Assembly (NCBI GenBank): GCA_902825985.1 | Contig: CADEDC010000002.1 | Coordinates: 23,226 to 87,225 of the forward strand | DNA length: 64,000 bases | Direction: 5' to 3' | DNA from: an uncultured Acidobacteriota bacterium | GTDB lineage: Bacteria > Acidobacteriota > Vicinamibacteria > Vicinamibacterales > CAVVIG01 | Shown here: one piece after another, positions 48,164-63,461 of the stretch | How positions within the stretch are numbered: position 1 is the first letter of the stretch | Layout of the letters: each line of letters starts with the position of its first letter | Position numbers and translations under genes: made by a program | Notes under the pieces: model-generated | What the model was told of the DNA's origin: nothing | Database searches by the model: none | What the model saw: the letters and a program-made list of their open reading frames with translations, nothing else

Positions 48164-49255
48164 CTACGACGCGCGGGCCCGCAGGCCGGCCGGGCGGCCG
48201 GCCACCGACCGGGCGGCGCCCTGCCGCACCGCCTCGTACTCCGCCATGTAGGCGCCGTACACCGCCCGCGGCGTGAAGTGCTGCCGGTACTGCGCCCGTG
48301 CCCGCTCGATCAGCAGTCGGCGCGCCGCCGGCGTCGTGCCCCGGACGGTGGCGATGGCACGCGCCAGGTCGAGCGCATCGGGCGCGTCGAAGAACACCGT
48401 GCCGTGCCCCTGTTCGTCCATCCCGGAGAAGTGGGCGTTGCGGCCGGCGATGACGGGAATGCCATCGCACCACGCCTCGACCAGTGCGAACGGCCGCCGC
48501 TCGTCGAACGCCGGCAACGTCAGGTAGTCGCAGCGCGCCGCAATCGCGCGCGGGTGATGACGCGGCCCGCACACGCGGATCCGGTCGTCGACCCCGAGCG
48601 CCATGGCGAGTTCGGCGCAGGTCCTCGCGTCCACCTGGCCGGCGAGGACGCAGAGGAGTCCGTCGCGCTGCGAGACGCAGGCCAGCGCCCTCAGCACGGT
48701 CTCGTGGTGCACGCTGGTGCTGCCGTGACCGACGGCGCACAGGACGTCGCCGCCCTGGGTCCGCCACGCCACCAGCTCACGGTCCAGGGCGCTCTCCTCG
48801 GCGGTGAGCCGCGGCGTCGCCTCGACGGCGTACGGGATGACCCGCACCTGCTGCGGCTGGACGCCGAGCGTCGTGACCAGCGACGCCGCCAGCGACGACG
48901 GCACGGTCACCAGGTCGGCGAGCGTCAGCGACGGGATGTCGGGCTGCGCCGCGCGAATCCCCTCGTCGTAGACCCAGTCGTGCAGCGTCGCAATCACCGG
49001 CGTCCGGGTGCCGGCCGGCTCGCGAAGCGCCAGGCTGACCGGGACGGCGGCGGTCCCATGGGCGTGGATCAGATCGAAGGTCGCGGCGCCACCGAGCGTG
49101 CGATCGACGAACTGCGCGATGCCGGCGTCGTCGCCGAATACCGCCATCGAGGCGACCGCGACGGTGTGGCGCTCTAGCCGCTGTTCGTCGATCAGACGCG
49201 ACACGGCCATCGCCCCGTGCGGGACGAGCGTCGACAACACATGGAGGATTCGCAT
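48164..49255 (-). CDS. Glycosyltransferase, GT4-like
   Basis: 363 aa. MRILHVLSTLVPHGAM and the C-terminal FDERRPFALVEAWCDGIPVIAG (E-x7-E-like). Confidence 0.8.
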   Translation of the reverse strand: MRILHVLSTLVPHGAMAVSRLIDEQRLERHTVAVASMAVFGDDAGIAQFVDRTLGGAATFDLIHAHGTAAVPVSLALREPAGTRTPVIATLHDWVYDEGIRAAQPDIPSLTLADLVTVPSSLAASLVTTLGVQPQQVRVIPYAVEATPRLTAEESALDRELVAWRTQGGDVLCAVGHGSTSVHHETVLRALACVSQRDGLLCVLAGQVDARTCAELAMALGVDDRIRVCGPRHHPRAIAARCDYLTLPAFDERRPFALVEAWCDGIPVIAGRNAHFSGMDEQGHGTVFFDAPDALDLARAIATVRGTTPAARRLLIERARAQYRQHFTPRAVYGAYMAEYEAVRQGAARSVAGRPAGLRARAS

Positions 49256-49257
49256 GA

Positions 49258-50409
49258 TCAGGCGGTCCGCTGCTTTCGAAGTGAGCCCACCGGCCGGGCA
49301 TGCACGGTGTGCGAGGCCGCCGCGGCGCGCGCCTGCGCACTGACGGCGAAGTCGTCGACGACGCGTTCGATGGCCGCGAGCACGGCGGTGGCGTCACCGC
49401 GGCTCACGTCGCGGCCGATGCTGTCGACCGCTCGCGCCAGCACCGCCGGATCGGCCGGCCGCTGGCGCGCCACCCAGATCCGCCGGTGCCGGGTCGGACA
49501 CATCCGGAGCCCCTGGCTGGAGAGCTCCTCGCGCAGCTTCTCGCCGGGCCGCAGGCCGATGTGCTCGACGGCGACGCGCACGAACCCGCCGCGGGCTTCG
49601 AGGTCGAGCAGCCGGTCGGCGAGCGTGCCGATGCGGACCGGCGCTCCCATGTCGAGCCAGTAGGTCTCGGCCCGCCGGGCCTGCAGCTCGGTCTTCATGA
49701 CCAGCGCGACCGCCTCACCGGCGGTCATGAAATAGCGCGTCGCCTCGGGATCGGTGATCGGGATCGGCCGGCCCTGACGCACCTGCTCGCGCATGATCGT
49801 CAGGACGCTGCCGCTGCTGCCGAGGACGTTGCCGAAACGGACGACGATCGGCTGGAAGGTCTTCGACGTCCGCGACAGCACCACGAACTCGGCGAATCGC
49901 TTGGTCGCGCCCATCACGCTTTGCGGCGTCGCCGCCTTGTCCGACGAGATGAGGACGAAACGGGCGCCGACCGCGCGTGCCGCGTCGACGGCGCAGCGCG
50001 TGCCGAGGATGTTCGCGTCGGCGGCGGCACAGACCGCCCGCTCCGCCATCGTGACGTGCTTGTAGGCCGCCGCGTGGTAGACGACGTGCGGACGGTGGGC
50101 GCGACACGCGTGGTCCATCGCACCGGCCCGTGCGACGTCGGTGAGGACGACCTCGAGCGGCAGGTCCGGAAACTGCCCGGACAGCTCACGTTCGACCTGG
50201 AACAGCGCCAGTTCCGACTGATCGAGCAGCACCAGCCGCTGCGGCGCCAGCGGCGCGATCCGGCGTGCCAGCTCCGAGCCGATCGAACCACCGGCGCCGG
50301 TGATCAGGACGCGCCGCCCGGCAAAGGCGCGGCGGTCGGCGTCGGTCAGCAGCCGGCGGACCGGCCGCTGCAGCAGGAACTCGAGATCGGCCTCCGAGAA
50401 CGCGGTCAT
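49258..50409 (-). CDS. CapD/PglF/WbpM-type NDP-sugar 4,6-dehydratase (soluble catalytic domain; candidate first step of nonulosonate synthesis)
   Basis: 383 aa. VLITGAGGSIGSELARRI, HAAAYKHV, ISSDKAATPQSVMGATKR (the polysaccharide biosynthesis CapD family). Confidence 0.85.
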   Translation of the reverse strand: MTAFSEADLEFLLQRPVRRLLTDADRRAFAGRRVLITGAGGSIGSELARRIAPLAPQRLVLLDQSELALFQVERELSGQFPDLPLEVVLTDVARAGAMDHACRAHRPHVVYHAAAYKHVTMAERAVCAAADANILGTRCAVDAARAVGARFVLISSDKAATPQSVMGATKRFAEFVVLSRTSKTFQPIVVRFGNVLGSSGSVLTIMREQVRQGRPIPITDPEATRYFMTAGEAVALVMKTELQARRAETYWLDMGAPVRIGTLADRLLDLEARGGFVRVAVEHIGLRPGEKLREELSSQGLRMCPTRHRRIWVARQRPADPAVLARAVDSIGRDVSRGDATAVLAAIERVVDDFAVSAQARAAAASHTVHARPVGSLRKQRTA

Positions 50410-51236
50410 CGCCCGCCTCCGGCCGGCGTGCCTGGCGCGGCGCCGCCGCCGAGCGCCTCGGGACGCCCGATCCCCGGCCGGCCGACGCCGCTCGCCGACG
50501 GTTCCTCCGCCGCGTCGGTGCCGCCGTTCAGGATGACGATGTCGACGCGGCGGTTGCGGCTGCGGCCGCCGTCGGTGGTGTTCGAGACCCGCGGCCGGTA
50601 CTCGCCATAGCCGGCGACCGACAGCCGGGCCGGCGACACGGCGTCACGGGCCATCAGAATCTCGACCACGCGGATCGCGCGCGCCGCCGACAGGTCCCAG
50701 TTCGAGGCGAACCGCGCCGTGTGGATCGGGACATCGTCGGTGTGCCCCTCGATGCGGATGGCGTTGGGCAACCGCTCGAGCGCCTGGGCGAGCCGCGCCA
50801 TCACCTGCTCCAGCGCCGGTGACAGGTCGTCGCTCCCGACCGGGAACGCCCCGGTCTCGGGGATCGAGATGATCAAGCCGCGCCGGTCGCGGTTGATCTC
50901 GACCTGGCCGGCCCGGATCGCCTCGTCGAGTTCGGTCTCGACCTGCGATCGTACGTAGGCGATCTGCGCGTCGAGCACCTCGCCGCCGTGCTGCAGCACT
51001 TCCCGACCGCTGCCGCCGGCGACGCCGTCGAGCGATGTCGCCGGCACCGCCGGCGTGTCGAAGGCGGTCTGCATGCCCTCGGCGACGCCCGACAGCTTGG
51101 CGACATCGACGGTCGAGGCCGCGTACAGAGTCGTGAAGAACGCGAAGAGGAGCGTCACGAAGTCGGCATAGGAGATGATCCAGCGGTCGCGGACCCCTTC
51201 CGACATCCGCCGGCGGCGTTCGAACGCGCGCCTCAT
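50406..51236 (-). CDS. motB: Flagellar stator protein MotB-like (set 2), inside the sugar operon
   Basis: 276 aa. DRWIISYADFVTLLFAFFTTLY holds the TM segment and the conserved Asp. OmpA-like C-terminus (IEGHTDDVP...NWDLSAARAIRV...NRRVDI). ATGA overlaps at both ends (50406-09, 51233-36). Confidence 0.85.
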   Translation of the reverse strand: MRRAFERRRRMSEGVRDRWIISYADFVTLLFAFFTTLYAASTVDVAKLSGVAEGMQTAFDTPAVPATSLDGVAGGSGREVLQHGGEVLDAQIAYVRSQVETELDEAIRAGQVEINRDRRGLIISIPETGAFPVGSDDLSPALEQVMARLAQALERLPNAIRIEGHTDDVPIHTARFASNWDLSAARAIRVVEILMARDAVSPARLSVAGYGEYRPRVSNTTDGGRSRNRRVDIVILNGGTDAAEEPSASGVGRPGIGRPEALGGGAAPGTPAGGGR

Positions 51237-52036
51237 GCCGCCCGCCTCACGGTCTGCCGCTCGCGCAGCCGGACGTAGGCGTCGAGCTGCTCCTCGAGCT
51301 GCCGCGGATGCATGCCCTGTTGAATCGAGACCACCGCCTCGACGATCAACTCGCGCCGCAAGGCTGCCATGCGCGTCTGGTTCCGCACGCGCGCCGCCAG
51401 CGGCATGAAGACGAGGTTCGCGGAGCCGACGCCGTAGACCGTGGCGACGAACGCCACGGCGATACCGGCACCGAGCTTCGACGGCGCCGCCAGGTTCTCC
51501 ATGACGTGGATCAGACCGAGCACGGCGCCGAGAATCCCGAGTGTCGGGGCGTAGCCCGACGCCGACTCGAGGACGTGCGCCACCTCATCGTCGAACTCCT
51601 CCTGGGCGTGGCTTTCGGTCTCCATCGTCCGGCGTACCGCGTCCGGTGGCAGGCCGTCGATCGCCAGACCCAGCGCCCGCCCGAGAAACCGATCGCCGGT
51701 TTCCATCGCCGTATTCTCGAGCGACATCAGACCCTTCTTCTTCGAGCGCAGCGCCATGCTGGACAGCTCGGCCACCAGCGCCCGCATCGCCGGCGGCGGC
51801 GTGACGAAGGCATCCCGGACGGCGGACACCGTGCGGGCCAGGGTGGCGAGCGGGAAGCTCACCAGCAGCGCCGCTGCGGTTCCGCCGAAGACGACCAGCG
51901 CCGCGGTCGGCTGCACCAGCGACTGCAGGCTGCCGCCTTCGATCCGCTGCGCCACGATCACCGCCGCGAACGCCAGGCCGAGGCCGGCCAGCCCACTGAA
52001 GTCGAACTGTCGACGAGACGGAGGCTTCACGGTCAT
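51233..52036 (-). CDS. motA: Flagellar stator protein MotA-like (set 2; MotA/TolQ/ExbB channel family)
   Basis: 267 aa. TM segments and PTLGILGAVLGLIHVM...AFVATVYGVGSANLVFMPLA. The start overlaps the cytidylyltransferase stop (ATGA at 52033-36). Confidence 0.85.
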   Translation of the reverse strand: MTVKPPSRRQFDFSGLAGLGLAFAAVIVAQRIEGGSLQSLVQPTAALVVFGGTAAALLVSFPLATLARTVSAVRDAFVTPPPAMRALVAELSSMALRSKKKGLMSLENTAMETGDRFLGRALGLAIDGLPPDAVRRTMETESHAQEEFDDEVAHVLESASGYAPTLGILGAVLGLIHVMENLAAPSKLGAGIAVAFVATVYGVGSANLVFMPLAARVRNQTRMAALRRELIVEAVVSIQQGMHPRQLEEQLDAYVRLRERQTVRRAA

Positions 52037-52755
52037 CCGACATCTGACGCGGTCGTATGGTCGCCGGACACCGGCATGGTCAGCGCTCGCGCCGCCGCTC
52101 TGAGGATCTCGACAAGCGGCGCCGGCTCGCCCGGCATGGCGCCGGCCAGCGCGAAGACGCGGCGCATGAAGGCGAGGTCGGCGCCCGTGTCGACTGTCAG
52201 GCGGACGGCCGGGCGGCGGACGACGCCGGGTGCCAGCGCCGGCAGCGCGAAGAACCGGCGGTCGCGCCGGATGAGCGGCGTCACGTGTTCCCGATCGAAC
52301 GGATCGACCGCCAGACCGGCCGCCCGCGCCAGCGCTTCCACGGTGACCGCTTCCACCGCCGCGCCATGCGGCAGGCCGTGCTCGACCACATGATCGGCGC
52401 CGCTCCGGTGCAGCAGCGACAACGTCCGCGCCGCGGCGTCCATGTCGACCGCCGGGTTGTCGGCCGTCGCGCGGATGACCTCGGTGAGCCCGTGGCGGAC
52501 CGCCGCGGCGTAGTAGCGGCCGAGCACGTCTTCGGTCGCGCCCCGGAACACCGATGCACCGAGCCGCGCCGCCTCCGCGGCGACACGGTCGTCGTCGGCG
52601 AGTTCAGTCGTGGCGACGATCACCGTCAGTCCCGACGTCTTCAGGCGCTCGATGCAGTGGGCGAGCATCGAGCGGCCGGCGATGGGCGCCAGCACCTTCC
52701 CCGGAAGACGCGACGAGCCCATGCGGGCCTGCAGAATGATGGCAGCGTTCGGCAT
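52033..52755 (-). CDS. Cytidylyltransferase (SpsF/PseF-like CMP-nonulosonate synthetase family)
   Basis: C-terminal 240 aa of ORF 52033..53403. MPNAAIILQARMGSSRLPGKVLAPIAGRSML...TADNP is the typical SpsF/acylneuraminate cytidylyltransferase N-terminus. Confidence 0.8.
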   Translation of the reverse strand: MPNAAIILQARMGSSRLPGKVLAPIAGRSMLAHCIERLKTSGLTVIVATTELADDDRVAAEAARLGASVFRGATEDVLGRYYAAAVRHGLTEVIRATADNPAVDMDAAARTLSLLHRSGADHVVEHGLPHGAAVEAVTVEALARAAGLAVDPFDREHVTPLIRRDRRFFALPALAPGVVRRPAVRLTVDTGADLAFMRRVFALAGAMPGEPAPLVEILRAAARALTMPVSGDHTTASDVG

Positions 52756-53762
52756 CAGGCAACCTCGGCGATCGGCGTCGGCTGCAGCGGCTCGAGCGAC
52801 ACGTGCCGCTCGTCGACGAACACCGACGCCTCGTAATTCGTCATCCACAGGTTTTCCTTGAACTGCCCGATGATCGGCGTGACCCGGAAACCGCGGACCA
52901 GTTCGAGCAGCAGGCGCGGCACGTCGACCCCGGCGGCAATCGTCAGGCCGATGCCGCCGGAGAATCGCGGATTGATCTCGAACACCACCGGCCGTCCCTG
53001 CACGACCCGGCACTGGATGTTCACCGGCCCGACGAACGGCAGCACGCCGGCACACTGACGGGCCAGGGCGAGCAGCGACTCGTCGCGGACCGTGCGACCG
53101 CGGTCGATCACTCCGGCGCGAATCACCACCCGCTCGCGCGGGACGATCGCCAGCGGCTCGCCGCCGAAACTGCACAGCATGTCCAGCGTGAACTCCGGAC
53201 CGTCGAGATACTCCTGCACGATCGCGTCGTCGACGTAGTCGACGAAGAAGTCGAGCTCGCGCGCCGAGCGGATCGGGTAGGCGCCGACGCCGCCACGGCC
53301 GACGCGCGGCTTGACGAACAGCGGGAAACCGTGGCCGGCCGGCAGCTCGGCGGGTAGCCACGTGGGGGCCGCCGCCACCCCCCGTGCCACCAGGCTGCGG
53401 CACAACGCGTACTTGTCGTTGCAGAGCGCCGTCGTCGCCGACGGCGACACGGCGACGCGGATGCCCGCCGCCTCGAAACGCGGCTGGGCGTCGGCGAACG
53501 CGGTCAGCTCATCGTCGATCGTCGGGACGACCAGGCGGACGCGTTCGTGGCGGGCGATCCGGAGGATCTCGTCGATGTAGTCCGGCGCCGACGACAGCGG
53601 CACGCGGTACGCCGCATCCGCATAGTGGACGGCCGGCGACAGCGGGTTCACGTCGGTGGCGACCACCCGGCCGCCGCCGAGCTGCGCCAGCGCCGAGCGG
53701 AAGCCGTTGACCAGCGCGACGCGGCGCGACGCCGCGGTCACCAGGACGTTAGGCGACGACAC
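52755..53762 (-). CDS. ATP-grasp domain enzyme
   Basis: Trimmed from ORF 52755..53882. GTG start at 53762, preceded by AGGAGG. 335 aa. LVTAASRRVALV, FVKPRVGRGGVG, IVQEYLDGPEFTLD, FEINPRFSGG. Confidence 0.8.
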   Translation of the reverse strand: MSSPNVLVTAASRRVALVNGFRSALAQLGGGRVVATDVNPLSPAVHYADAAYRVPLSSAPDYIDEILRIARHERVRLVVPTIDDELTAFADAQPRFEAAGIRVAVSPSATTALCNDKYALCRSLVARGVAAAPTWLPAELPAGHGFPLFVKPRVGRGGVGAYPIRSARELDFFVDYVDDAIVQEYLDGPEFTLDMLCSFGGEPLAIVPRERVVIRAGVIDRGRTVRDESLLALARQCAGVLPFVGPVNIQCRVVQGRPVVFEINPRFSGGIGLTIAAGVDVPRLLLELVRGFRVTPIIGQFKENLWMTNYEASVFVDERHVSLEPLQPTPIAEVA

Positions 53763-54840
53763 GTGGCCTCCTCTCCTCGAGCGGCACGATGAGGTCGCGT
53801 TCCCGGAGCGGCGCCCCTGCCGCCACTGGCCGGGCGGTGCGCCGGCCGATGAACTCGGCCAGGCGTCCGGCAACCACCGCATGTGCCGGCCGCAACGCCG
53901 TCAGGTCGGCCGCTTCGATGACGTGATCGGCGGGCAGCGCTCTGGCGACGTACAGTCCGCGCCGGCTGGGGATGACGTTGGCCGACTCGGCTGGCAGGCA
54001 GACCTTCTCGCCGCTGCCGAGGGCGGCGACGGCGCGCGCCGCGTCGCGAACCGCGGCCGCCAGTTCCGTCGGGTCGCTCGACACGGCATCGTCGATCGAG
54101 CCGTCGCCGTGGGCGAGGACCAGGTGGCGCTCGTACAGACAGGCGCCGAGGGCCACGGCCATCGGCACCGCACACGTGTCGTCGGCATGGTCGGACAGGC
54201 CGACCGGGACGCCCAGGGCGTCGGCGAGCGTCTGGATGGCGCGCAGGTTCTCGCTGCCGCGCGGGACGGGATAGGCGGACACACAATGGAGCATCGCGAC
54301 GTGCCGGGCCCCGGCCTGCCGGGCGATGCCGAGCGCGTGCGACGCATCGGTCCGGCTGCCCATCCCGGTGGAGATCACCAGCGGCAGCCCGGTCTGCCCG
54401 GCGCGGGCGATCAGCCCGTCCCACGTCAAGTCGCCGCTGGCGATCTTGATGGCGTCGACGCCGACGCGCTCGAGCAACGCGACGGCGTCGAGCGAGAACG
54501 GCGTCGCCATGACGGCCAGGCCGCGCTGGCGCGCACGCTGCACGATGGCGCGGTGCGCCGCTTCGTCCAGTTCGAACGCGGCGAAGAATCCACGCAGCGA
54601 GTCGCTGCGAACGTGCGCCGGAGCCGGGCAGGCGGCGGCGACCAGGTCGTCGGCGAACAGCGTCTGCAGCTTGATAGCCGAGGCGCCGGCGTCCGCCGCC
54701 GCATCGACGAGGGCCAGCGCCTTGTCGGCGACGCCGCCATGATTCAGGCCAATCTCGGCGATGACGAACAGCGGATGGCCGGCGCCGACCGGGCGTCCGC
54801 CTATCTCGAACTCGGGGCTACGACGATCACGCGACATCAC
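53749..54840 (-). CDS. neuB: NeuB-family nonulosonic acid synthase (PseI/LegI/NeuB-type) with C-terminal SAF domain
   Basis: 363 aa. FVIAEIGLNHGG, IKLQT, KIASGDLT, VISTGM, LHCVSAYP, GLSDH, and the C-terminal RRGLYVARALPADHVIEAADL. Confidence 0.9.
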   Translation of the reverse strand: MMSRDRRSPEFEIGGRPVGAGHPLFVIAEIGLNHGGVADKALALVDAAADAGASAIKLQTLFADDLVAAACPAPAHVRSDSLRGFFAAFELDEAAHRAIVQRARQRGLAVMATPFSLDAVALLERVGVDAIKIASGDLTWDGLIARAGQTGLPLVISTGMGSRTDASHALGIARQAGARHVAMLHCVSAYPVPRGSENLRAIQTLADALGVPVGLSDHADDTCAVPMAVALGACLYERHLVLAHGDGSIDDAVSSDPTELAAAVRDAARAVAALGSGEKVCLPAESANVIPSRRGLYVARALPADHVIEAADLTALRPAHAVVAGRLAEFIGRRTARPVAAGAPLRERDLIVPLEERRPRVVA

Positions 54841-55525
54841 GACTCCCTTCCCGTCGGCTCACCAGGCCGGCCACGGCGTCCGGCACCTCACGCATCGAGC
54901 GGACGACGGCGTCGGCGGCGCTGTGCCCGGCGACCCCCGGCTGACGGCTGACGCGCACGGTTCGCATCCCCAGCGCCGCGGCGCCGCGGATGTCGCACTC
55001 CTCGTTGTCGCCGACGAACACGGCGCGGTGGGGTCCGACACCCAACTGCGTCAACGCCGCGTCGAAAGGCTCACGATCGGGCTTGCCGCGCCCGGAGCCG
55101 CACTCACCGGCGAAGACGACGGCATCGACGAGCGGCCGCAGGCCGAGCGCCGCGATCTTGGCCGCCTGGACGCGGGGGGTGCCGTTCGTGACGACGGCGA
55201 GGCGCCAGTCGGGCCGCAACGCGGCGAGCGCCGCGCGCGACGCCGGCGGCAGGCGCAACGACGGCCGATGCGAACGGCTGACGTCGACCAGCGCCGTCGT
55301 CAGCGACTCGGGCCAGCCGTACAGCGCCAGGCACAGCTGGATCTCGCGGCCGCGCTGCGGCCCGCGGTAGGCACGCGACAGCCTGCGGAAGACGTCGCGC
55401 GCCGGCACGTCGAAGCGGGCACTCAAGTGTTGCGCCATCGCCGCGAACGCGCTGAGCACGAAGCGGCGCTGCGGATAGAGCGTGTCGTCGAGGTCGAAGA
55501 GCACCGCGCACCGGTTACGCAGCAT
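54827..55525 (-). CDS. HAD-superfamily hydrolase/phosphatase
   Basis: Trimmed from ORF 54827..55642; start at 55525. 232 aa. VLFDLDDTLY (motif I), VVTNG (II), GKPD...FVGDNEECDIRGA (III/IV). Confidence 0.85.
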   Translation of the reverse strand: MLRNRCAVLFDLDDTLYPQRRFVLSAFAAMAQHLSARFDVPARDVFRRLSRAYRGPQRGREIQLCLALYGWPESLTTALVDVSRSHRPSLRLPPASRAALAALRPDWRLAVVTNGTPRVQAAKIAALGLRPLVDAVVFAGECGSGRGKPDREPFDAALTQLGVGPHRAVFVGDNEECDIRGAAALGMRTVRVSRQPGVAGHSAADAVVRSMREVPDAVAGLVSRREGSRDVA

Positions 55526-56519
55526 GTCGACCACCCTTCGAATGGCGGGCCAGTTCGCGCACCCGGTCGGCGACGCGGAAGATGCCGCGGCCATCGACGA
55601 GCGCCTGCCCGGCTGCCGCCAGCCGCCGCATGCCGCGCGCATCGTGCAGCAGGTGCGCCAGTTGCGGCGCCAGCCGCGTCAGGTGACGGGGGTTGCTGGC
55701 GCTGCCGCCGTCGCGGAGCGCGCCGGCATCAGCCAGGGCACGGATGGTCAAGGCCTGGGCCGGCGTCAGGGCGATCCCGATCGCGGGCGTGCCGATGGCG
55801 CACGCCTCGTAGGCGGTGACACCGCCCGCCAGGACGGCGACGCTGGCGCGCGCCAGCTCCTCACCGAGGCCATGGCGCGCCATCACCCACTCGCCGTGGC
55901 GCAGCGGCGGCAACCGCTGGGCGTCGGTGAAGCCGGCGGCAATCCGCACGCGCAGTCCCGGGTGAGCGGCCGCCAGTGATGCCGAGAGCCGGGCCGCGAG
56001 CGCGAAGACGTAGCTGCCGCCGCCGAGCGCCAGCAGGACGCGCCGGGGCTCGACGATCGCCGGCCGCCGTTCGCGCCAGCGGACCACGTCCGGGTCGAGC
56101 ATGGCGTAGGCCGGTCCCCGCAGGTCGCCCAGCCGATCGCGCATCGCCCGGTGCGGGCGGACGCTGCCGTCGATCCCGAGGTCCGACGTGACATAGCCGA
56201 GCCCGAGGTCGTGCACGGTCGCGACCGGCACGCCGAGCCGGCGGGCACGGATCACCCAGGCGTCCGCGTGCTCCGCCGACGGGTCGTCGATGACGAGGAC
56301 GCACGGCCGGCCGCCGTCGCGCAGCGCCTGCGTCCCGTCGTCGGCCAGCGAGAATCCGAGACGCACCGCAGCCTGCCGCGTGCGCGCCGTACCACGCAGC
56401 GACACCAGCGGCGGCACGCCGAGGGCCCGCGCCAGTGACCGGCAGCGAATCAGGTGGCCAAACCCGAGGCGCGGACCGGCCGCCGCACGGAACAGGACGC
56501 GCAATTCGTGCGCCGCCAT
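55515..56519 (-). CDS. pseG: PseG-like UDP-sugar hydrolase (GT28 C-terminal-like fold)
   Basis: C-terminal 334 aa of ORF 55515..57506. RAAAGPRLGFGHLIRCRSLARAL matches the PseG G.GH..RC..LA motif. The C-terminal half (LLALGGG...VLAGGVTAYEACAIGTPAI) is GT-B like. Confidence 0.7.
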   Translation of the reverse strand: MAAHELRVLFRAAAGPRLGFGHLIRCRSLARALGVPPLVSLRGTARTRQAAVRLGFSLADDGTQALRDGGRPCVLVIDDPSAEHADAWVIRARRLGVPVATVHDLGLGYVTSDLGIDGSVRPHRAMRDRLGDLRGPAYAMLDPDVVRWRERRPAIVEPRRVLLALGGGSYVFALAARLSASLAAAHPGLRVRIAAGFTDAQRLPPLRHGEWVMARHGLGEELARASVAVLAGGVTAYEACAIGTPAIGIALTPAQALTIRALADAGALRDGGSASNPRHLTRLAPQLAHLLHDARGMRRLAAAGQALVDGRGIFRVADRVRELARHSKGGRHAA

Positions 56520-56521
56520 GA

Positions 56522-57685
56522 CTAGCGCAGCCTCCGCACGTGGCGGCGCACCGCCGCGATCACGGCGTCGACGTCGGCCTCGCGCATGCCGGCCGACAGC
56601 GGCAGCGACAGCGTACAGTCCGAGACGCGTTCCGCCACTGGCCACATGCCGCGGCGGAATCCGAAGGTTTCGGCGTAGTAGGTGAAGAGGTGCACGGCGC
56701 GGAAGTGCACGCTGGTCATGATGCCGCTCTCGCGCAGTGCCGCCGCGAGCGCATCGCGGCTCCAGCCCGACTCGGGTTCGACCAGCACCGTGTACAGGTG
56801 CCGCGCGTGCCGGTCGCCGGCGGCGACCGGTGCCGGACGGGTCAACGGCAGATCGGAGAACGCCTCGTCGTAGCGCTGCCAGATGGCGTCGCGGCGGCGC
56901 CATCGCTCGTCCAGACGCGCGAGCTGCACGAGGCCGATCGCGGCCATGACATCCGGCATGTTGTACTTGAAGCCGGGCGTCACGACGTCGTACAGCGCGG
57001 TCCCGGTGCGCGCGTAGCGTGTCCAGCCGTCGCGGCTCATGCCGTGCAGCGACATCCGCCGGGCGGTGTCGGCCCAGGCGGCCGAATGCGTCGTCAGCAT
57101 GCCCCCTTCGCCGGTCGTCAGGTTCTTCGTCGCGTAGAAGCTGAAGCAGGTGAAGTCGGCGGTTCCGCCAATCTTCGCCCCCGCCGACCGGCCTTCGACG
57201 CAGTGGGCGGCATCCTCGATGATCCGGGCGTCGTGGCGGAGGCCGAGCGCGGCGAACGCCGTGGTGTCCACCGGCCGCCCGGCGTAGTGCACCGGAATGA
57301 TCGCCCGCGTCCGCCCGGTGATCGCGGCGTCGACGGCGGCGGGATCGAGGTTCCAGGTCGTCGAATCGATGTCGGCGAAGCGCGGTGTCGCGCCGACGTG
57401 CACCACGGTGTTGGCCGTCGCACAGAAGGTGAGCGGCGTCGTGATCACGTCGTCGCCAGGGCCGACGCCGGCGGCGAGCAGCGACAGGTGCAGCGCCGCC
57501 GTGCACGAGTTGACGGCCACGGCGTGATCGACGCCGACGTAGGTGGCGAATGCCCGCTCGAATTCCTTGACGCGTGGACCGCTCGACAGCCAGCCGGACT
57601 CGAGCGCGGCGACGGCGGCCGCAATCTCCTCCGCGCCGATGACCGGCGGGGCGAAGTCCACGGCGGCGCCTGGCGGCGGCGACAT
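56522..57685 (-). CDS. DegT/PseC-family PLP-dependent sugar aminotransferase (copy 2)
   Basis: Trimmed from ORF 56522..57859; start at 57685. 387 aa. GWLSSGPRVKEFE, NSCTAALHLSL, FSFYATKNLTTGEGG. Confidence 0.9.
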   Translation of the reverse strand: MSPPPGAAVDFAPPVIGAEEIAAAVAALESGWLSSGPRVKEFERAFATYVGVDHAVAVNSCTAALHLSLLAAGVGPGDDVITTPLTFCATANTVVHVGATPRFADIDSTTWNLDPAAVDAAITGRTRAIIPVHYAGRPVDTTAFAALGLRHDARIIEDAAHCVEGRSAGAKIGGTADFTCFSFYATKNLTTGEGGMLTTHSAAWADTARRMSLHGMSRDGWTRYARTGTALYDVVTPGFKYNMPDVMAAIGLVQLARLDERWRRRDAIWQRYDEAFSDLPLTRPAPVAAGDRHARHLYTVLVEPESGWSRDALAAALRESGIMTSVHFRAVHLFTYYAETFGFRRGMWPVAERVSDCTLSLPLSAGMREADVDAVIAAVRRHVRRLR

Positions 57686-58206
57686 CAGTGCCGCCCCTCG
57701 ATTCCCAGGTCGATGGTTGCCAGCTCGCGGGCCGGGCTCGGCGGCTTGCCGGCCCGGGCGCTGGCGTGGGCCAGCATGGCGGCGGCGAGATGCACGCGGC
57801 AGCCGGCCCGTTCGACGCCGTCGACCTGCAGGAACGGCGCCCGCCAGGTCAGGCGACACGGCCGCCAGCCGTAGTCGAGGTCGGCGCCGTTCAGCACGTC
57901 GACGAGCGTCCCGTCGAGATCGAAGATCTGCACGCGCGCGTTGCCGTAGTCGGCGACCGCCAGCCAGTAGCCGTCGGCCGGCTCGATCCCGGTGTCTTCG
58001 TCGAACGTCGGTGCGACGAGTGCGAGATCCAGCGGGACGTCGAAGGTCCCGAGGGCGGTACCGCGACGGCCGATGGTGAACAGCTCGTCGCCGGTCGCGG
58101 CGGCGGTGACGACGATGCGATGACCGCTCAGGTCGACGCGATAGGTCCGCACCTCCCCGGTGCGCAGCGTGACGCGCACCGAGCCGTGATCGAAGGGCGC
58201 GCTCAT
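57685..58206 (-). CDS. Small hypothetical protein with NHL-repeat-like segments
   Basis: 173 aa. GRRGTALGTFDVPLDLAL and YWLAVADYGNARVQIFDLDGTLV resemble NHL blades (VAD..N.R.Q.F...G). Overlaps both neighbours, by 1 nt with pseC (57685) and by an ATGA (58203-58206) with 58203..58811. Confidence 0.5.
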   Translation of the reverse strand: MSAPFDHGSVRVTLRTGEVRTYRVDLSGHRIVVTAAATGDELFTIGRRGTALGTFDVPLDLALVAPTFDEDTGIEPADGYWLAVADYGNARVQIFDLDGTLVDVLNGADLDYGWRPCRLTWRAPFLQVDGVERAGCRVHLAAAMLAHASARAGKPPSPARELATIDLGIEGRH

Positions 58207-58811
58207 GCGGCCTCCCGCAGTTCCTCGAGACGATCGAAGAGCGCGTGCCAGCGGCGAATCGCCGGCCGCAGCTCCTCCTCGAGACAGATGGCGGTGCGGG
58301 CCCAGTCGCCGACGGACTGCCAGGTGCGCAGGGCGCGCAGGGCGGTGCCGACCGGATTCGTGATGTCGGCCGCCGGCACCATCGACGGCCGGCCGGTTTC
58401 GAGCGTGATCACGTCCGCCATCGCGCCGGTGAGCACGGTCAGCGCCCGCACGGCTTCGACCAGGTCGCCCAGCTCCCGGCTGGCCGTGTCGGGATCGTCA
58501 CGGAACTTGATCGCGACGCGGGTGATTGTCGTTTCGAGCAACCCGATGCTGTTCCGGGCGGTCGTCATCGTGTCCGCCAGCAGCCGAGAGGCGCTGCTGC
58601 TCTCGATCTCAATCTTTCCCATCGTTGCCAACCCTCGGTCCAGGTCACCTTGTCCGCGAAATGACGGCCGGACGACACCGTCGAATCGGACTGCCGTCAC
58701 GATGCGACCGCGGATACGGAGGCGCCTCTCGACCGCTTTGAGCAAATTGCCCCAGTTTTGGCGTGAATGCGGCGCCCATTGCTGTTGGTGGTCGAGCACG
58801 TATCCGGTCAT
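58203..58811 (-). CDS. Hypothetical protein, right-hand member of the paralog pair; first gene of the 17-gene operon
   Basis: Trimmed from ORF 58203..58988; start at 58811 (MTGYVLDHQ). 202 aa, homologous over its length to 29500..30102. Confidence 0.65.
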   Translation of the reverse strand: MTGYVLDHQQQWAPHSRQNWGNLLKAVERRLRIRGRIVTAVRFDGVVRPSFRGQGDLDRGLATMGKIEIESSSASRLLADTMTTARNSIGLLETTITRVAIKFRDDPDTASRELGDLVEAVRALTVLTGAMADVITLETGRPSMVPAADITNPVGTALRALRTWQSVGDWARTAICLEEELRPAIRRWHALFDRLEELREAA

Positions 58812-58833
58812 CGCGGGGTCCCGTCGGAGACAG

Positions 58834-58850
58834 GAGCGAGAAGGCTGCCA
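58834..58850 (-). promoter_or_regulatory. Candidate sigma-54-like -24/-12 promoter for the glycosylation operon
   Basis: The minus strand reads TGGCAGCCTTCTCGCTC, with GG-N10-GC spacing. It is 14/17 identical to the + strand motif at 59914-59930. It lies 23-39 nt upstream of the ATG at 58811. Confidence 0.4.
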
Positions 58851-58933
58851 CATGCCGCGGCAGGTGGCGGGCGCCCGCCGGCACGCCGACCGCCGGAACT
58901 GCACGCCGACCGTCGGCCGGCGCGGCTGTCCGC

Positions 58934-58960
58934 TAAAGCTCCGGCCGGCTCCTCCGATTA
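58934..58960 (+). promoter_or_regulatory. Sigma-28 (FliA) promoter of fliC
   Basis: TAAA(58934-37)-N15-TCCGATTA(58953-60) against the consensus TAAA-N15-GCCGATAA. About 75 nt upstream of the fliC ATG. Confidence 0.6.
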
Positions 58961-58994
58961 CTGGCCCAGCAAGGTGACACGTCGTCACAGGCAG

Positions 58995-59028
58995 CCGGCA
59001 AGGACGCCGGTTCCACAGTCACGGAGGA
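58995..59028 (+). promoter_or_regulatory. Putative CsrA binding sites in the fliC leader (GGA in a hairpin loop plus GGA overlapping the SD)
   Basis: Hairpin CCGGC-AAGGAC-GCCGG (58995-59010) presents AAGGA in its loop. The second site ACGGAGGA (59021-28) is the Shine-Dalgarno sequence, 8 nt before the ATG. Confidence 0.45.
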
Positions 59029-59035
59029 TTCACAC

Positions 59036-59833
59036 ATGGCTTCTTTTTCAGTCGTCAGCAACGTTTCGGCCTCGAATGCCCAGGCCAACCTCGTCAACAC
59101 GAACCTGCAGCTGCAGCGCACCATCACGCGTCTGTCGAGCGGCTTCCGCATCAACCAGTCCGGCGACGATGCGGCCGGCCTGGCGGTGGCCAACAGCTAT
59201 CGTTCGACGCAGGCCGTGCTCAACCAGGGCATCCGGAACGCCAATGACGGCCTGTCGACCCTGCAGATCAAGGACTCGGCCCTCAACAACGTCGGCAACC
59301 TGCTCGATCGTCTTGCGACCCTGGCGACCCAGTCGGCGTCGGCCGGCTTCACGGGTTCGCGCACGGTGCTGAACACGGAATTCCAGGACGTCCTCACGGA
59401 AATCACGCGCGAAGTCAACGCCGCGGGCATCAACGCCTCGCAGGGCTTCTCGGTGTTCATCGCGTCGGGCGCCAACGGCACGGTCGGCGGCACCATCGGC
59501 GCGGCAGACACCACGACACTCGGCATCAACGCGTCCACCATCGATACGGCCGCCAACGCCGCCACCGCTGTCACCGCGGTGACCACCGCGGTGGCGACGC
59601 TCGGTGGGGTCGTCGGCAGCATCGGTACGATTCAGAACCGGCTGTCCTACGCCATCTCGCTGGCGCAGCAGCAGGTGGTGTCGAACCAGGCGGCGGAAAG
59701 CCGGATCCGTGACGCGAACGTGGCGGCGGAGTCCGCGAACCTGACCCGCTACACCATCCTGACGCAGAGCGGTATTGCGTCCCTGGCGCAGGCCAACCAG
59801 CAGAGCTCGTCGGTCCTCTCGCTGTTGCGGTAA
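59036..59833 (+). CDS. fliC: Flagellin (short, D0/D1-only type)
   Basis: 265 aa. N-terminal LSSGFRINQSGDDAAGLAVAN and C-terminal IQNRLSYAISLAQQQVVSNQAAESRIRDANVAAESANLTRYTILTQSG...SLLR. Confidence 0.95.
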   Translation: MASFSVVSNVSASNAQANLVNTNLQLQRTITRLSSGFRINQSGDDAAGLAVANSYRSTQAVLNQGIRNANDGLSTLQIKDSALNNVGNLLDRLATLATQSASAGFTGSRTVLNTEFQDVLTEITREVNAAGINASQGFSVFIASGANGTVGGTIGAADTTTLGINASTIDTAANAATAVTAVTTAVATLGGVVGSIGTIQNRLSYAISLAQQQVVSNQAAESRIRDANVAAESANLTRYTILTQSGIASLAQANQQSSSVLSLLR

Positions 59834-59846
59834 GTGTCGGTTCGTC

Positions 59847-59881
59847 GACGGGTGGTGGCCGGTATACGGTCATCGCCCGTC
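59847..59881 (+). terminator. Candidate fliC terminator/attenuator hairpin
   Basis: GACGGGTGGTGGCCG-GTATA-CGGTCATCGCCCGTC forms a 15-bp stem (12 Watson-Crick, 3 G-U) with a 5-nt loop. It starts 14 nt after the stop. A pyrimidine-rich tract follows, but no clean U-run. Confidence 0.5.
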
Positions 59882-59913
59882 CCTCTTCCTCAGGCGGCGG
59901 AGCCCCAGGAACG

Positions 59914-59930
59914 TGGCAACGTTCTCGCTT
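59914..59930 (+). promoter_or_regulatory. Candidate sigma-54-like -24/-12 promoter for fliD-fliS
   Basis: TGGCAACGTTCTCGCTT, with GG-N10-GC spacing. It lies ~57-73 nt upstream of the fliD ATG and is the twin of the motif at 58834-58850. Confidence 0.4.
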
Positions 59931-59986
59931 AACCGATCGGGCCGACATACTTCGCACCCGATCCTTCGGCGCAGGAGCGTGACAAC

Positions 59987-61360
59987 ATGGGTTCCCCGAT
60001 CACCTTTAGCGGCTTCAACAACATCGACTTCAGCACGGTGCTCAACGCGCTGATGACGCAGGCGGCGATCCCGCTCAACCAGCTCCAGGCCCGGCAGTCG
60101 GCGCTTCAGAAGCAACAGACCAATTTCGAGACACTGTCGTCGAAACTGGCGGCGATCAGCAGTGCGTCGACCGCCCTGGCGGATCCGGCCACGCTGCGCA
60201 GCGCCACGGCGACGACGACCGACGCCGCCGCGCTCGCCATCTCCGCCTCGGGATCGACGCTGCCCGGCCACTACGACGTGGTGGTGCGCGAACTGGCACG
60301 CAGCCAGGTCACCGCGAGCGCCACGACGACGCCGGACGCCGATACCACCGCCGTCGCCACCGCCGGGGCGCTCGAGATCGCCGGCATCCAGATCACCGTG
60401 TCGCAGCCGGTCACGCTGCGGCAGCTCGCCGAGGCGATCAATGCGTCGGAGGCTCCGGTCACGGCGACCGTCGTCGCCTCCGGGACGTCGCAGTACCGGC
60501 TCGTCCTCACCGCCTCCGCGTCGGGCGTCGACAACGCCTTCACCGTCGGCAACACGCTGTCGGGCGGGTCCGGCGTCACGTTCACCGACACCGACGGGGA
60601 CGGGGTCAGCGGCGACACCGCCGCCGACAACGCCGTTCAGGCGCTCGACGCCGACGTGACGGTGAACAACATCCAGATCACGAGCTCCAGCAACACGCTG
60701 ACCGAGGCGATTCCCGGGGCGACGCTGACGCTCCTGCGACGGGATCCGGCGGCGACCATCGGCATCGATGTCGCCTCGGATTCCACGGCGACGCGGACGA
60801 CGCTCCAGAGCTTCGTGACGGCGTACAACGCGTTTGCCAGCTTCTATACGACGCAGGCAACCGCGGCGCGCGGCGGCGACGAGTCGAGCATCGGCCGCAA
60901 TCCGATGGTGCGCGGGCTGCAAACCGACATCCGGAACAGCCTGCTCCAGGCCCAGACGACCGGCGGGCGGTACACGAACCTGTCGCAAATCGGCCTCGAA
61001 TTCAGCCGGACCGGTCAGTTGCAGCTCAACGAGGCGACGTTCAACGCCGCCATGTCCGCCGATCCGGACGCGGTCCGCTCGCTGCTGTCGGGCGCCGGCG
61101 GCACGAGCGCCTTCGAGCGGGTCGCGACGACGCTGGAGACCTACACCAGCGGCTCCGGGCTGATCTCGGGCGTCAAGCAGCAGCTGACGGCCAGCATCTC
61201 GCGTCTCGGCACCCAGATCGACGCGATGACCCGGCGCCTGCTCACGCAGCGGGCGACGATGCAGCGCGAATTCGTCGAAGCGGAAGCCGCCATGACCCGA
61301 TTGAAGAATCAGAGCGGCAATCTCGGATCGCTCAGCACCAATCTGACCTCGGCCATCTAG
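59987..61360 (+). CDS. fliD: Flagellar filament cap protein FliD
   Basis: 457 aa. N-terminal ITFSGFNNIDFSTVLNALM...LQ.RQ...Q, and the C-terminal coiled coil (QREFVEAEAAMTRLKNQ) typical of FliD. AGGAG precedes the ATG. Confidence 0.9.
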   Translation: MGSPITFSGFNNIDFSTVLNALMTQAAIPLNQLQARQSALQKQQTNFETLSSKLAAISSASTALADPATLRSATATTTDAAALAISASGSTLPGHYDVVVRELARSQVTASATTTPDADTTAVATAGALEIAGIQITVSQPVTLRQLAEAINASEAPVTATVVASGTSQYRLVLTASASGVDNAFTVGNTLSGGSGVTFTDTDGDGVSGDTAADNAVQALDADVTVNNIQITSSSNTLTEAIPGATLTLLRRDPAATIGIDVASDSTATRTTLQSFVTAYNAFASFYTTQATAARGGDESSIGRNPMVRGLQTDIRNSLLQAQTTGGRYTNLSQIGLEFSRTGQLQLNEATFNAAMSADPDAVRSLLSGAGGTSAFERVATTLETYTSGSGLISGVKQQLTASISRLGTQIDAMTRRLLTQRATMQREFVEAEAAMTRLKNQSGNLGSLSTNLTSAI

Positions 61361-61390
61361 GCCGCGCCGCCGCAGGGAGAACAGGTTCGA

Positions 61391-61783
61391 ATGTACGCTG
61401 CGCTCAAAGCAACCGACGCCTACCGCCAGACCGAAGTGCGGTCGCGAACCCCGCTCGAACTGGTGGTGATGCTGTACGACGGCGCGCTCAAGTTCATGAC
61501 CGCCGCTCAAGAGGCGATCCGGCGCGGCGACATCGGCGCCCGCAAGACCGCCATCTCGAAGACGCTCGCCATCGTCTCCGAGCTGCAGAGCACGCTGAAC
61601 ATGGACCAGGGCGGCGAGATTGCCGCGTCGCTCGATGAGCTGTATCGTTGGTCGAGCGTGCGGCTGCTCGACGCGACGGTGCACAACGACCCGGCGCCGA
61701 TCGAGGAAGTGGCGGAGGTCTTTCGGACCCTGCGCGACGGCTGGAGCGGCATCGCCTCGGGGAGTGGAAGCGGGAGCAAGTGA
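61391..61783 (+). CDS. fliS: Flagellin-specific chaperone FliS
   Basis: 130 aa. AYRQTEVRSRTPLELVVMLYDGALKFM...IVSELQSTLNMDQGGEIAASLDELY are FliS family motifs. Confidence 0.95.
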   Translation: MYAALKATDAYRQTEVRSRTPLELVVMLYDGALKFMTAAQEAIRRGDIGARKTAISKTLAIVSELQSTLNMDQGGEIAASLDELYRWSSVRLLDATVHNDPAPIEEVAEVFRTLRDGWSGIASGSGSGSK

Positions 61784-62253
61784 CGCGCAACGACGTTGAG
61801 CAGCTGCTGGCCCAGTACCGCGCCGGCCTCGAAGCCGAGATGCTGCTGCTGCGCCAACTGTCGACGCTGGCGCAGCGGCAGAAAGCCAGCACCGAATCGC
61901 GCAACTTCGAACAGCTCGCCGCCGAGAGCGACGAGCGCGACCGCGTCACCCGCAGCCTGGTGACCCTCGAGGACGGCCTCGCCGACGTGCGTCACCGGCT
62001 GGCCGCCGTCAAGGCGCAGGCCATCGCCCTTCCCGCCTACGACCTCGTCGTCGCGATGCGGCAGGAGGCGGCGGAACTGGTGTCGAGTGTGCTGTCGGTC
62101 GACCAGGAATCGCTGAAGTCGCTGGCCGACGCCGAAATGGCGCGGCGAGCGGCGATGGCCAGTCTCGAGAAGGGCGAGACGACGTTGGCCGCCTATCGGA
62201 AGGTGCTCACGCCGCCGGTCGAACACGCCGCACTGGTCGATCGCCGCGGCTGA
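61780..62253 (+). CDS. Hypothetical helical/coiled-coil protein downstream of fliS (possible FliT/FlgN-like chaperone)
   Basis: Trimmed from ORF 61648..62253. The GTG at 61780 overlaps the fliS stop (GTGA). 157 aa, Leu/Ala/Glu/Arg-rich and helical. Function is inferred only from position and composition. Confidence 0.45.
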   Translation: MTRNDVEQLLAQYRAGLEAEMLLLRQLSTLAQRQKASTESRNFEQLAAESDERDRVTRSLVTLEDGLADVRHRLAAVKAQAIALPAYDLVVAMRQEAAELVSSVLSVDQESLKSLADAEMARRAAMASLEKGETTLAAYRKVLTPPVEHAALVDRRG

Positions 62254-62271: not shown

Positions 62272-63198
62272 CTAGACGCCGGCTCCCGCCATCGACCGCC
62301 ACGCCGACAGAAATGCGCCGCGGCGCGCGAAGCCGTGGCGGCCGTAGAGCGCCATGGCCGCCCGATTGTCGTCGGCGACCAGCAGACTCACTCTGGTGTA
62401 GCCACGGCCGGCCAGCCGGGTGAGCGCGCCACGCAGCAGCCGACCTCCCCGGCCCTCGCCCTGGCAGTCGCGGTCGACGGCGATCTGCGCGATATGACCG
62501 GTGAGCGGCGCGATGCGCGTCGTCAGCACGGCGCCGATCAGGCGACCCGGCCGATCGGTCGGCTCGTCCACGAGGCTGGCCCAGGGGAGCAGTTCGCCGC
62601 AGCCGGTGTGTGCGACGAGCTGGCCGGCATAGTCCAGCCACTCGTCGGCGGTGCCGCGTGGCGCGAACGGCCGCGCCGGGTCGAAGCCGGGATAGGCACG
62701 GGCCAGCAGATCGGCCGTTGCCGCCAGCCGTCCGGCATGGAACGAGCGGCACTCGACGCGGACCTCCTCGGGAGGCAGGGCGTCGAGTCGGCGGTCGAGG
62801 TAGGCGAACGTGCGCACGGCGAATCCGCGTGCCTGGAGGATGTCGCGGACGCCGGCGCCGGTCTCGGGGATGAACGCCATCGCATCACCGGCCCGCGCCG
62901 CCTCCGGCGAGGCGAGCATGCCGTCCAGCACGGAGGCGACGGCGGCGGTGGAGCGCCCGGCGAGGGCTCCGAGCTGCAACGTCCCACGATGCAGCAGGTG
63001 GAATCCCCAGCCGGCCGGTCGCGGACCGTCATCGTAGGCGACGAGGCCCGGCAGTGTGCCGACCGCCCGGGCGGCCTCCACCTGGCGCCAGTTGTCCGTC
63101 GTGTCCCAGGCGAAGCGGTCGGTCCAGACTGCGCGTTCGTCGTCGTAGCAGCGGCTGAGTTCAGGTGCCGGCAGCGTCTGCCAGTCGACGACGATCAT
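62272..63198 (-). CDS. GNAT-family N-acetyltransferase (two-lobed, 308 aa), translationally coupled to csrA
   Basis: C-terminal GNAT core HIAQIAVDRDCQGEGRGGRLLRGAL...VSLLVADDNRAAMALYGRHGF. The ATG at 63198 overlaps the csrA stop (ATGA). Confidence 0.8.
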   Translation of the reverse strand: MIVVDWQTLPAPELSRCYDDERAVWTDRFAWDTTDNWRQVEAARAVGTLPGLVAYDDGPRPAGWGFHLLHRGTLQLGALAGRSTAAVASVLDGMLASPEAARAGDAMAFIPETGAGVRDILQARGFAVRTFAYLDRRLDALPPEEVRVECRSFHAGRLAATADLLARAYPGFDPARPFAPRGTADEWLDYAGQLVAHTGCGELLPWASLVDEPTDRPGRLIGAVLTTRIAPLTGHIAQIAVDRDCQGEGRGGRLLRGALTRLAGRGYTRVSLLVADDNRAAMALYGRHGFARRGAFLSAWRSMAGAGV

Positions 63199-63461
63199 GG
63201 CGTTGCGGCGGGCTCGGACTCGCTCGTCTCGCGCAGCCGCGCCGCCAGCGAGGTGACGACGCTGGCGTCGGTGGTGGCACGCTTCGCCGCCGAGGCGTTG
63301 CTCGACTCGACCAGCCGATAGATCTCGCTGCGGTGTACCGGCACGTCGGGCGGCGCCGTGATCCCGATGCGCACGCCGTCCTTGCCGATCCGCACCACCC
63401 GGATCTCGATGCCGTTCCCGATGATGATCGCCTCATCGCGCTTACGGGTGAAGACCAGCAT
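63195..63461 (-). CDS. csrA: Carbon storage regulator CsrA (flagellar FliW-partner type, extended C-terminus)
   Basis: C-terminal 88 aa of ORF 63195..63635. MLVFTRKRDEAIIIGNGIEIRVVRIGKDGVRIGITAPPDVPVHRSEIY is the CsrA signature. A ~40-aa tail follows the core. Confidence 0.95.
   Translation of the reverse strand: MLVFTRKRDEAIIIGNGIEIRVVRIGKDGVRIGITAPPDVPVHRSEIYRLVESSNASAAKRATTDASVVTSLAARLRETSESEPAATP

Follow-up and report, generated by a model that had tools for sequence, protein, structure and literature searches.

The flagellin gene fliC of a soil acidobacterium of the order Vicinamibacterales lies between two similar 17-nt motifs that face outward, one ahead of the cap gene fliD and the other ahead of an operon for a pseudaminic-acid-type sugar. 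We propose that these 17-mers are very probably the -24/-12 cores of two divergent promoters dependent on sigma-54 (RpoN), placed on either side of a fliC gene that is itself driven by sigma-28 (FliA). The stretch of DNA analysed, hereafter the window, is 64 kb long (64,000 nt) and has a G+C content of 70.5%; its FliD homologues place it in the Vicinamibacterales. The motifs are real and evolutionarily conserved, and by their sequence they are of the sigma-54 type. Their positions are as follows.

58834..58850, minus strand: left sigma-54-type promoter core, TGGCAGCCTTCTCGCTC; GG at 58849-58848, GC at 58837-58836; predicted transcription start site (TSS) ~58825-58824
59914..59930, plus strand: right sigma-54-type promoter core, TGGCAACGTTCTCGCTT; GG at 59915-59916, GC at 59927-59928; predicted TSS ~59939-59940

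Direct reading of the DNA confirmed the pair of motifs that a sequence-only reading of the window had described: the two 17-mers are identical at 14 of 17 positions, with mismatches at positions 6, 8 and 17, and both have GG at positions 2-3 and GC at positions 14-15, giving the geometry GG-N10-GC. Compared with the extended consensus TGGCAC-N5-TTGCW, both sites match TGGCA, T12, GC and W16, and both have C, not T, at position 13. The right site ends 56 nt before the fliD ATG (59987) and the left site 22 nt before the ATG (58811) of orf202, the first gene of the sugar operon. The pattern TGGCANNNTTCTCGCT occurs twice in the whole window, each time as one of the two 17-mers. This count is not decisive, because 1.3 matches with no more than two mismatches are expected by chance. 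Chance similarity of two GC-rich 17-mers would be compatible with the expectation of about one degenerate version of the pattern per window, and with the background-level score that a generic sigma-54 matrix gives the left site.

What speaks against chance is orthologous conservation far above expectation. A genome scan with the FliD alignment recovered 80 species-level loci from Vicinamibacterales and other Acidobacteriota (FliD 32-57% identical), to which four closer relatives (FliD 61-83% identical) were added. Sites were collected with the pattern TGG[CT]-N7-[TC][TCG]GC[ACT], derived from the window, over a span of 120 nt upstream of fliD. The pattern was present upstream of fliD in 35 of 78 loci, where 3.5 were expected, and upstream of the orf202 homologue in 31 of 32 (~1.6 expected). 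In every case the motif is oriented along the coding strand of the downstream gene, and on the orf202 side of the relatives its end lies 22-27 nt from the start codon, with a GGAG Shine-Dalgarno sequence between the two. Eleven more loci, which were not in the training set, carry the motif ahead of a divergent open reading frame (ORF) of ~200 aa that is a distant orf202 homologue (hidden Markov model E=1e-7 to 1e-13; hhalign probability 97.6%). At loci L025, L026, L007 and L040 the first gene of the operon is a different one, and the motif still stands at the operon head.

Because the site collection had used a window-derived pattern, we also enumerated all dyads of a 4-mer, a gap and a 3-mer (~1.5e5 patterns) as an unbiased check. 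The top dyad upstream of fliD was TGGC-N9-GCA, found in 29 of 78 sequences as against 82 of 6000 background windows (p=1e-33), and the top dyad upstream of orf202 was GGCA-N8-GCT (26 of 32 sequences, p=5e-47); both are GG-N10-GC. The information profile of the sites consists of two sharp blocks, TGGCa.G..TtTcGC(A/T), with flanks at ~0 bits, and the positions that the site pattern had left free (A5, G7, T10-11) agree with the sigma-54 consensus. When a matrix was built from the relatives only, the window sites scored 19.8 and 15.9 and took ranks 1 (right) and 2 (left) among the ~128,000 positions on both strands of the 64 kb, the next match scoring 12.8. The two sites are likewise the top two matches to this clade matrix in the closer relatives, except in L087, where the left site reads CGGCATCCGTCTCGCTT; the right site is identical or nearly so in L086-L089, and the left site is conserved in L086, L088 and L089. 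Conservation, ranking by a matrix trained without the window and dyad enumeration already refute a chance match, which we regard as having practically no likelihood. The proposal of outward sigma-54-type promoters on either side of fliC, made from the sequence alone, is thus upheld by conservation that is locked in orientation and position across dozens of species.

Inverted copies that bracket fliC together with its promoter might also be read as the inverted repeats of a site-specific inversion system that flips the fliC segment, that is, as flagellar phase variation. However, the 14/17 identity does not extend beyond the motif, and the two copies evolve toward different consensus forms, ...GCTC on the left and ...GCA(C/T) on the right. 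The right copy is missing from more than half of the loci, whereas the left copy persists. None of the neighbouring genes was recognised as a recombinase gene, and fliC has one orientation relative to fliD in all 80+ loci. We find an inversion system scarcely credible and rejected it along with the chance match.

The -12 half of both window sites contains TCGC in place of the canonical TTGC, which had earlier been taken as a possible sign of weak RpoN sites or of sites for another factor. The comparison with relatives did not bear this out. The -12 half varies among TCGC, TGGC, CGGC and TTGC with an invariant GC; TCGC is the majority form in the clade, and Luteitalea-type lineages carry canonical TTGC, reading TGGCAGGAGCCTTGCTA at the orf202 position. 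The core of the Escherichia coli K-12 promoter glnAp2, read upstream of glnA, is TTGGCACAGATTTCGCTT; it shares the TCGCTT -12 half and is identical to the window fliD site at 13 of 17 positions. Since TCGC is both the clade-majority form and present in E. coli glnAp2, it does not imply a weak site. Variant -12 hexamers (TGGCAT, GTGCTT and TAGCAT) are also listed among the sigma-54 sites of Pseudomonas putida (PMC11997794).

Not every lineage keeps the right-hand site. At L052, L054, L055, L057, L060-L065, L068, L038 and L043, which belong to Luteitalea-type and some other lineages, a sigma-28-like element (...CTACAGCTTCCCGCTACACTGCCGATT...) replaces the sigma-54-type motif before fliD. Among those checked, five loci (L052, L055, L060, L061 and L068) retain a sigma-54-type site with TTGC before orf202. 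The presence of a sigma-28-like element at fliD together with a retained orf202 site indicates that the promoter class of fliD turned over within the order.

The genes that the two sites would control form one operon on each side of fliC.

59987-61360, plus strand: fliD (Pfam FliD_N/FliD_C)
61391-61783, plus strand: fliS (Pfam FliS)
61780-62253, plus strand: orf157, a 157-aa ORF, also called in L081, L084 and relatives
59987..62253, plus strand: right-promoter operon fliD-fliS-orf157
58203..58811, minus strand: orf202, gene 1 of the left operon, ATG at 58811; conserved, predicted helical bundle
57685..58206, minus strand: orf173, gene 2 of the left operon; its stop overlaps the pseC start; conserved in 21 loci
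56522..57684, minus strand: PseC-like DegT aminotransferase (Pfam PF01041, E=7e-122; start taken from the sequence)
55515..56530, minus strand: PseG-like gene (start approximate; TIGR03590 PseG match sub-threshold, E=5e-13)
48164..55642, minus strand: remaining left operon, abutting or overlapping ORFs with Pfam and NCBIfam matches, among them a HAD hydrolase, a PseF-like cytidylyltransferase and a PseB-like dehydratase

The left operon is a pseudaminic-acid-type sugar cluster with an added motAB pair, in the order orf202, orf173, pseC, pseG, HAD, neuB/pseI, ATP-grasp, pseF-like, motA, motB, pseB-like and glycosyltransferase (58811 down to 48164), and its gene order is identical in L086, L087 and L089. 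No sigma-70-like promoter was found in 58600-60050, and the left site is the sole promoter-like element ahead of the left operon. The sequence-only description of the left motif as lying ahead of a glycosylation operon is correct insofar as the putative promoter heads the pse operon, but incomplete, as the operon opens with orf202 and orf173 and also carries motAB.

The distance between the left site and its operon depends on where orf202 begins. We moved its start to the ATG at 58811 (202 aa) from the ATG at 58622, which gives an ORF of 139 aa. The 63 aa added at the N-terminus are conserved: with the extended protein, tblastn reaches 33 loci instead of 11, E-values improve by as many as 14 orders of magnitude, and alignments start at residue 1. 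In L087 and L089, orf202 is called at 202-203 aa by the NCBI and JGI gene callers. With the start at 58811 the left motif ends 22 nt ahead of the start codon and not ~200 nt. The same gene-calling pitfall recurs in Logan contigs, where orf202 is called at 139 aa instead of 202 aa. A second annotation was discarded: the "663-aa ORF" at 55515-57506, taken as a single gene, is partly a shadow frame over the genuine PseC aminotransferase. The TIGR03590 PseG match covers residues 424-586 of that ORF, and at the orthologous places in relatives pseC encodes 389-398 aa and pseG 334-337 aa.

Orf202 matches no Pfam or NCBIfam family, and a homologue search returned "hypothetical protein" only. Its AlphaFold model is a helical bundle with a predicted local distance difference test score (pLDDT) of 66 and, compared with the PDB by Foldseek, has no match at E<0.001. 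Orf173 has no significant Pfam or NCBIfam match, only a sub-threshold NHL/ScyF-like one. Together they are a conserved pair heading the glycosylation operon beside fliC, and from this context both are candidates for an accessory or regulatory role specific to glycosylation or to flagellin.

The motA-motB pair inside the pse operon, between pseF and pseB (50406-52036, minus strand), keeps its place in relatives, and a second motA-motB pair lies 23 kb from it (26882-28635, minus strand). The window also holds a second flagellin-modification region (31031-48037) with two Maf/MptE-like genes, one of them a 1177-aa Maf-methyltransferase fusion, together with an AsnB-type amidotransferase, a radical SAM/SPASM gene, and several methyltransferases and glycosyltransferases. 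This gene content suggests an elaborately derivatised nonulosonic acid.

Between the two sigma-54-type sites, fliC has a promoter of another class, a leader of its own and a hairpin after its end.

58934..58960, plus strand: fliC sigma-28-type promoter, TAAAG-N15-CCGATTA
58994..59028, plus strand: fliC 5' untranslated region, with a hairpin GCCGGC-AAGGAC-GCCGGT carrying GGA in the loop, and CACGGAGGA over the Shine-Dalgarno sequence
59036..59833, plus strand: fliC, flagellin, 265 aa (Pfam Flagellin_N and Flagellin_C)
59847..59881, plus strand: post-fliC hairpin, 15 bp, without a T-run; fold -40.7 kcal/mol, z=-3.2
63195-63461, minus strand: csrA, near fliC
63442-63906, minus strand: fliW, near fliC

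The fliC promoter has the bipartite sigma-28 (FliA) form TAAA-N15-GCCGATAA-like and is conserved in relatives. The form TAAA-N14-19-CGAT[AT] occurs upstream of fliC in 44 of 70 loci, with 0.45 expected; in relatives the element lies mostly 100-110 nt upstream of fliC, and most of the loci that do not match have TCAAG. The sigma-28 promoter claimed for fliC from the sequence alone can accordingly be generalised to a conserved T(A/C)AAG-N15-CCGATTA ~105 nt upstream of the gene. Elements like those of the fliC leader are found, with a loose pattern, in 59 of 71 loci of the relatives, and the leader has the two-site layout of flagellin mRNAs controlled by CsrA. The post-fliC hairpin stands ~30 nt ahead of the right motif and has equivalents in relatives. 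A terminator scan that relies on T-runs made no call there; the hairpin is a putative terminator or 3' stabiliser that parts fliC from the fliD promoter.

On this arrangement we propose the following model. Recognition of the right site by RNA polymerase holoenzyme containing sigma-54 (Eσ54) would start transcription near 59939-59940 and yield a fliD-fliS-orf157 transcript with a leader of ~46 nt. From the left site, transcription would start near 58825 and run through orf202-orf173-pseC-pseG-HAD-pseI-ATPgrasp-pseF-motA-motB-pseB-glycosyltransferase with a leader of ~14 nt. Between the two, fliC would be expressed from its own sigma-28 (FliA)-type promoter and through a CsrA-type leader. In other words, the cap, the flagellin chaperone, the nonulosonic-acid enzymes and one stator pair would form a sigma-54 class that depends on an activator, presumably a bacterial enhancer-binding protein (bEBP), and flagellin would form a sigma-28 class. 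By analogy with known hierarchies, it is reasonable to suppose that the cap and glycosylation genes would be expressed one tier earlier than flagellin.

Several observations weigh against the proposal that these are sigma-54-dependent promoters, and we consider them together here. A generic sigma-54 matrix does not distinguish the left site from background, and the clade-specific matrix was used in its place. Queries that, as a positive control, found rpoN and bEBP genes in unrelated metagenome loci detected neither kind of gene in the 64 kb of the window nor, in 84 relatives, within 6-10 kb of fliD. Among the flgM-flgN-flgK-flgL and flgAHIJ genes sampled in relatives, where the operon head was not reached, the motif was not found. 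The flgAHIJ-flgMN-flgKL genes are typical sigma-54 targets elsewhere. Eight distant loci (L005, L008, L016, L017, L033, L045, L048 and L050) have only 11-16 nt between the end of the fliD motif and the start codon, a spacing at which a TSS 12 nt after the GC would exclude the Shine-Dalgarno sequence from the transcript; this implies that fliD has a near-leaderless transcript there or is translated only from fliC read-through. Finally, the layout appears to leave almost no room for a conventional upstream activator site (UAS, or enhancer): the distance from the -24 element to the -35 element of the fliC sigma-28 promoter is 7-19 nt in 31 of 39 loci (83 nt in the window), and the right site directly follows the fliC hairpin.

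Two of these points can be set in context. RpoN is present in three of three Acidobacteria genomes surveyed (PMC3372290, Table 1), and bEBP homologues have been reported in Acidobacteriota (PMC12754779). As to the earlier expectation that the motif would exceed background frequency and recur at other flagellar operons, the motif is far above expectation at fliD and orf202 and was not found at the flg genes sampled. Of seven apparent matches upstream of flagellin paralogues, five were rejected as false positives, being the N-terminal coding sequence of flagellin, ATGGCAAGTTTCTCGGTC, without the GC.

The absence of rpoN and bEBP genes from the window and from the vicinity of fliD in relatives, the lack of room for a UAS, and the overlap of the motif with the fliD ribosome-binding region in some relatives would all fit a different reading, in which a conventional transcription factor binds the motif as its operator and co-regulates both operons flanking fliC, the -24/-12 likeness being coincidental. 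However, the conserved positions (TGGCA, G7, T12, GC and W16) are those of sigma-54 contacts at a fixed 10-nt spacing, and the site has no dyad symmetry and is strictly locked in orientation to the downstream gene. Moreover, the drift of the -12 half among TTGC, TCGC, TGGC and CGGC around an invariant GC is typical of sigma-54 promoters, as in the P. putida variants (PMC11997794). We consider such an operator improbable.

It is also conceivable that Eσ54 binds these sites genuinely but unproductively, so that closed complexes act as roadblocks or insulators that limit read-through from fliC into fliD and shield the divergent fliC promoter. That the sites lie so close to the sigma-28 promoter and the hairpin of fliC would fit such insulators, as would the short distance to the fliD start codon in some relatives and the lack of a nearby activator gene. 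The operon downstream of the left site, however, is long and has no other promoter-like element ahead of it. A sigma-70-like alternative was not found, and the site remains at the start of the operon when the first gene differs. In L089, moreover, the intergenic region is ~156 nt and is otherwise occupied by the fliC promoter and leader. We judge unproductive binding very improbable.

Sigma-54-dependent promoters thus remain the reading that we prefer, and the near-fixed back-to-back packing, which leaves a classical enhancer no room, suggests one form that their control might take. We hypothesize, as an unlikely but specific possibility, a compact switch in which the activator either works on Eσ54 from solution, independently of an enhancer, or binds to DNA of the fliC promoter or leader. 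In the second variant, activation of the glycosylation and stator operon would physically hold back fliC until FliA takes over.

Individual elements of this wiring have counterparts in well-studied bacteria. The flagellar regulators FlgR of Helicobacter pylori and Campylobacter jejuni (Epsilonproteobacteria) are enhancer-independent sigma-54 activators. Activators of the FlgR type would explain sigma-54 flagellar promoters without room for a UAS; no FlgR-like gene was identified here, and the parallel serves as a lead only. The glnAp2 promoter has NtrC enhancer sites 100-140 bp upstream. The acidobacterial sites resemble glnAp2 in core architecture and in the TCGCTT -12 half, but unlike it they have no free upstream DNA for an NtrC-like enhancer.

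The closest parallel for the right side is in Pseudomonas. In P. putida KT2440, PfliD is a Class II promoter dependent on FleQ and sigma-54, and PfliC depends on FliA/sigma-28 (10.1101/2021.08.29.457346). As is proposed for the window, fliD has its own sigma-54-type promoter directly downstream of a sigma-28-driven flagellin gene, and the cap and chaperone genes belong to an earlier class than flagellin. The P. putida promoter differs in being weak, with a conserved -24 motif but not a conserved -12 motif, and in being internal to a fliC-flaG-fliDST-fleQSR transcript, whereas the acidobacterial fliD site has an invariant -12 GC and a strong hairpin separates fliC from fliD. In P. putida the activator gene fleQ is also part of the same cluster, whereas no activator gene lies near the acidobacterial sites.

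For the left side the nearest counterpart is the flaB-jhp0106 operon of H. pylori (PMC5368276), in which the promoter of flaB, which depends on RpoN, also serves jhp0106, a glycosylation gene of the Maf family. There too a flagellin-glycosylation gene is under a sigma-54-dependent flagellar promoter; unlike in the acidobacterium, it is co-transcribed from the promoter of a minor flagellin gene. In that study the pse genes of H. pylori were not regulated by RpoN or CsrA (PMC5368276), whereas in the acidobacterium a dedicated sigma-54-type promoter heads pseC, pseG, pseI, pseF and pseB together with motAB, and the sole flagellin gene has a sigma-28-type promoter.

A few further promoter-like sites occur in the window. 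Two sigma-54-like sites on the minus strand have canonical TTGC and share GGCAYRTCGGTTGCTCA: AGGCACGTCGGTTGCT at 20247-20262, 66 nt upstream of the cheA start (20181), and CGGCATATCGGTTGCT at 47983-47998, 20 nt upstream of a second DegT aminotransferase whose true start is the ATG at 47962. The cheA chemotaxis operon is also preceded by a sigma-28-like element, TCAAG-N15-CCGATT (20423-20448, minus strand), laid out like the fliC promoter. The arrangement of these elements suggests that cheA may have tandem promoters of both classes, the sigma-54-like site being downstream of the sigma-28-like element. The second aminotransferase heads a degT-radical SAM-methyltransferase-Maf operon and has no orthologue in the Vicinamibacterales loci; a metagenome scan for its site returned 80 loci of mixed taxonomy (GC 36-67%) that are non-syntenic and hence uninformative on conservation.

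No specific report turned up in literature searches on sigma-54 and flagella for Acidobacteria or Vicinamibacter, and the phylum is absent from the main text of Francke et al. 2011 (PMC3162934). Hierarchies of sigma-54 and sigma-28 in flagellar regulation, sigma-54-driven fliD and sigma-54-linked glycosylation genes are all already known. What is new is such probable wiring in Acidobacteriota, the promoter model for the clade, the back-to-back packing, and the turnover of the fliD promoter within one order.

To our knowledge, nearly all that is understood of flagellar gene regulation comes from work on Proteobacteria, Firmicutes and spirochaetes. The clade-specific sigma-54 promoter model, TGGCa-G--TtT(c/t/g)GC(A/T), is usable for regulon annotation in hundreds of Vicinamibacterales metagenome-assembled genomes, and a practical gain for such annotation is the correction of the recurrent 139-aa versus 202-aa gene-calling error and of the pseC shadow ORF. 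The analysis predicts that the cap and chaperone genes, pseudaminic-acid-type flagellin glycosylation and one stator pair would be co-regulated ahead of flagellin, and it documents a change of fliD promoter class, from sigma-54 to sigma-28, within one order. If the compact switch is true, it would, combined with a fliD promoter that changes between sigma-54 and sigma-28 types from lineage to lineage, amount to a distinct acidobacterial design of the flagellar hierarchy.

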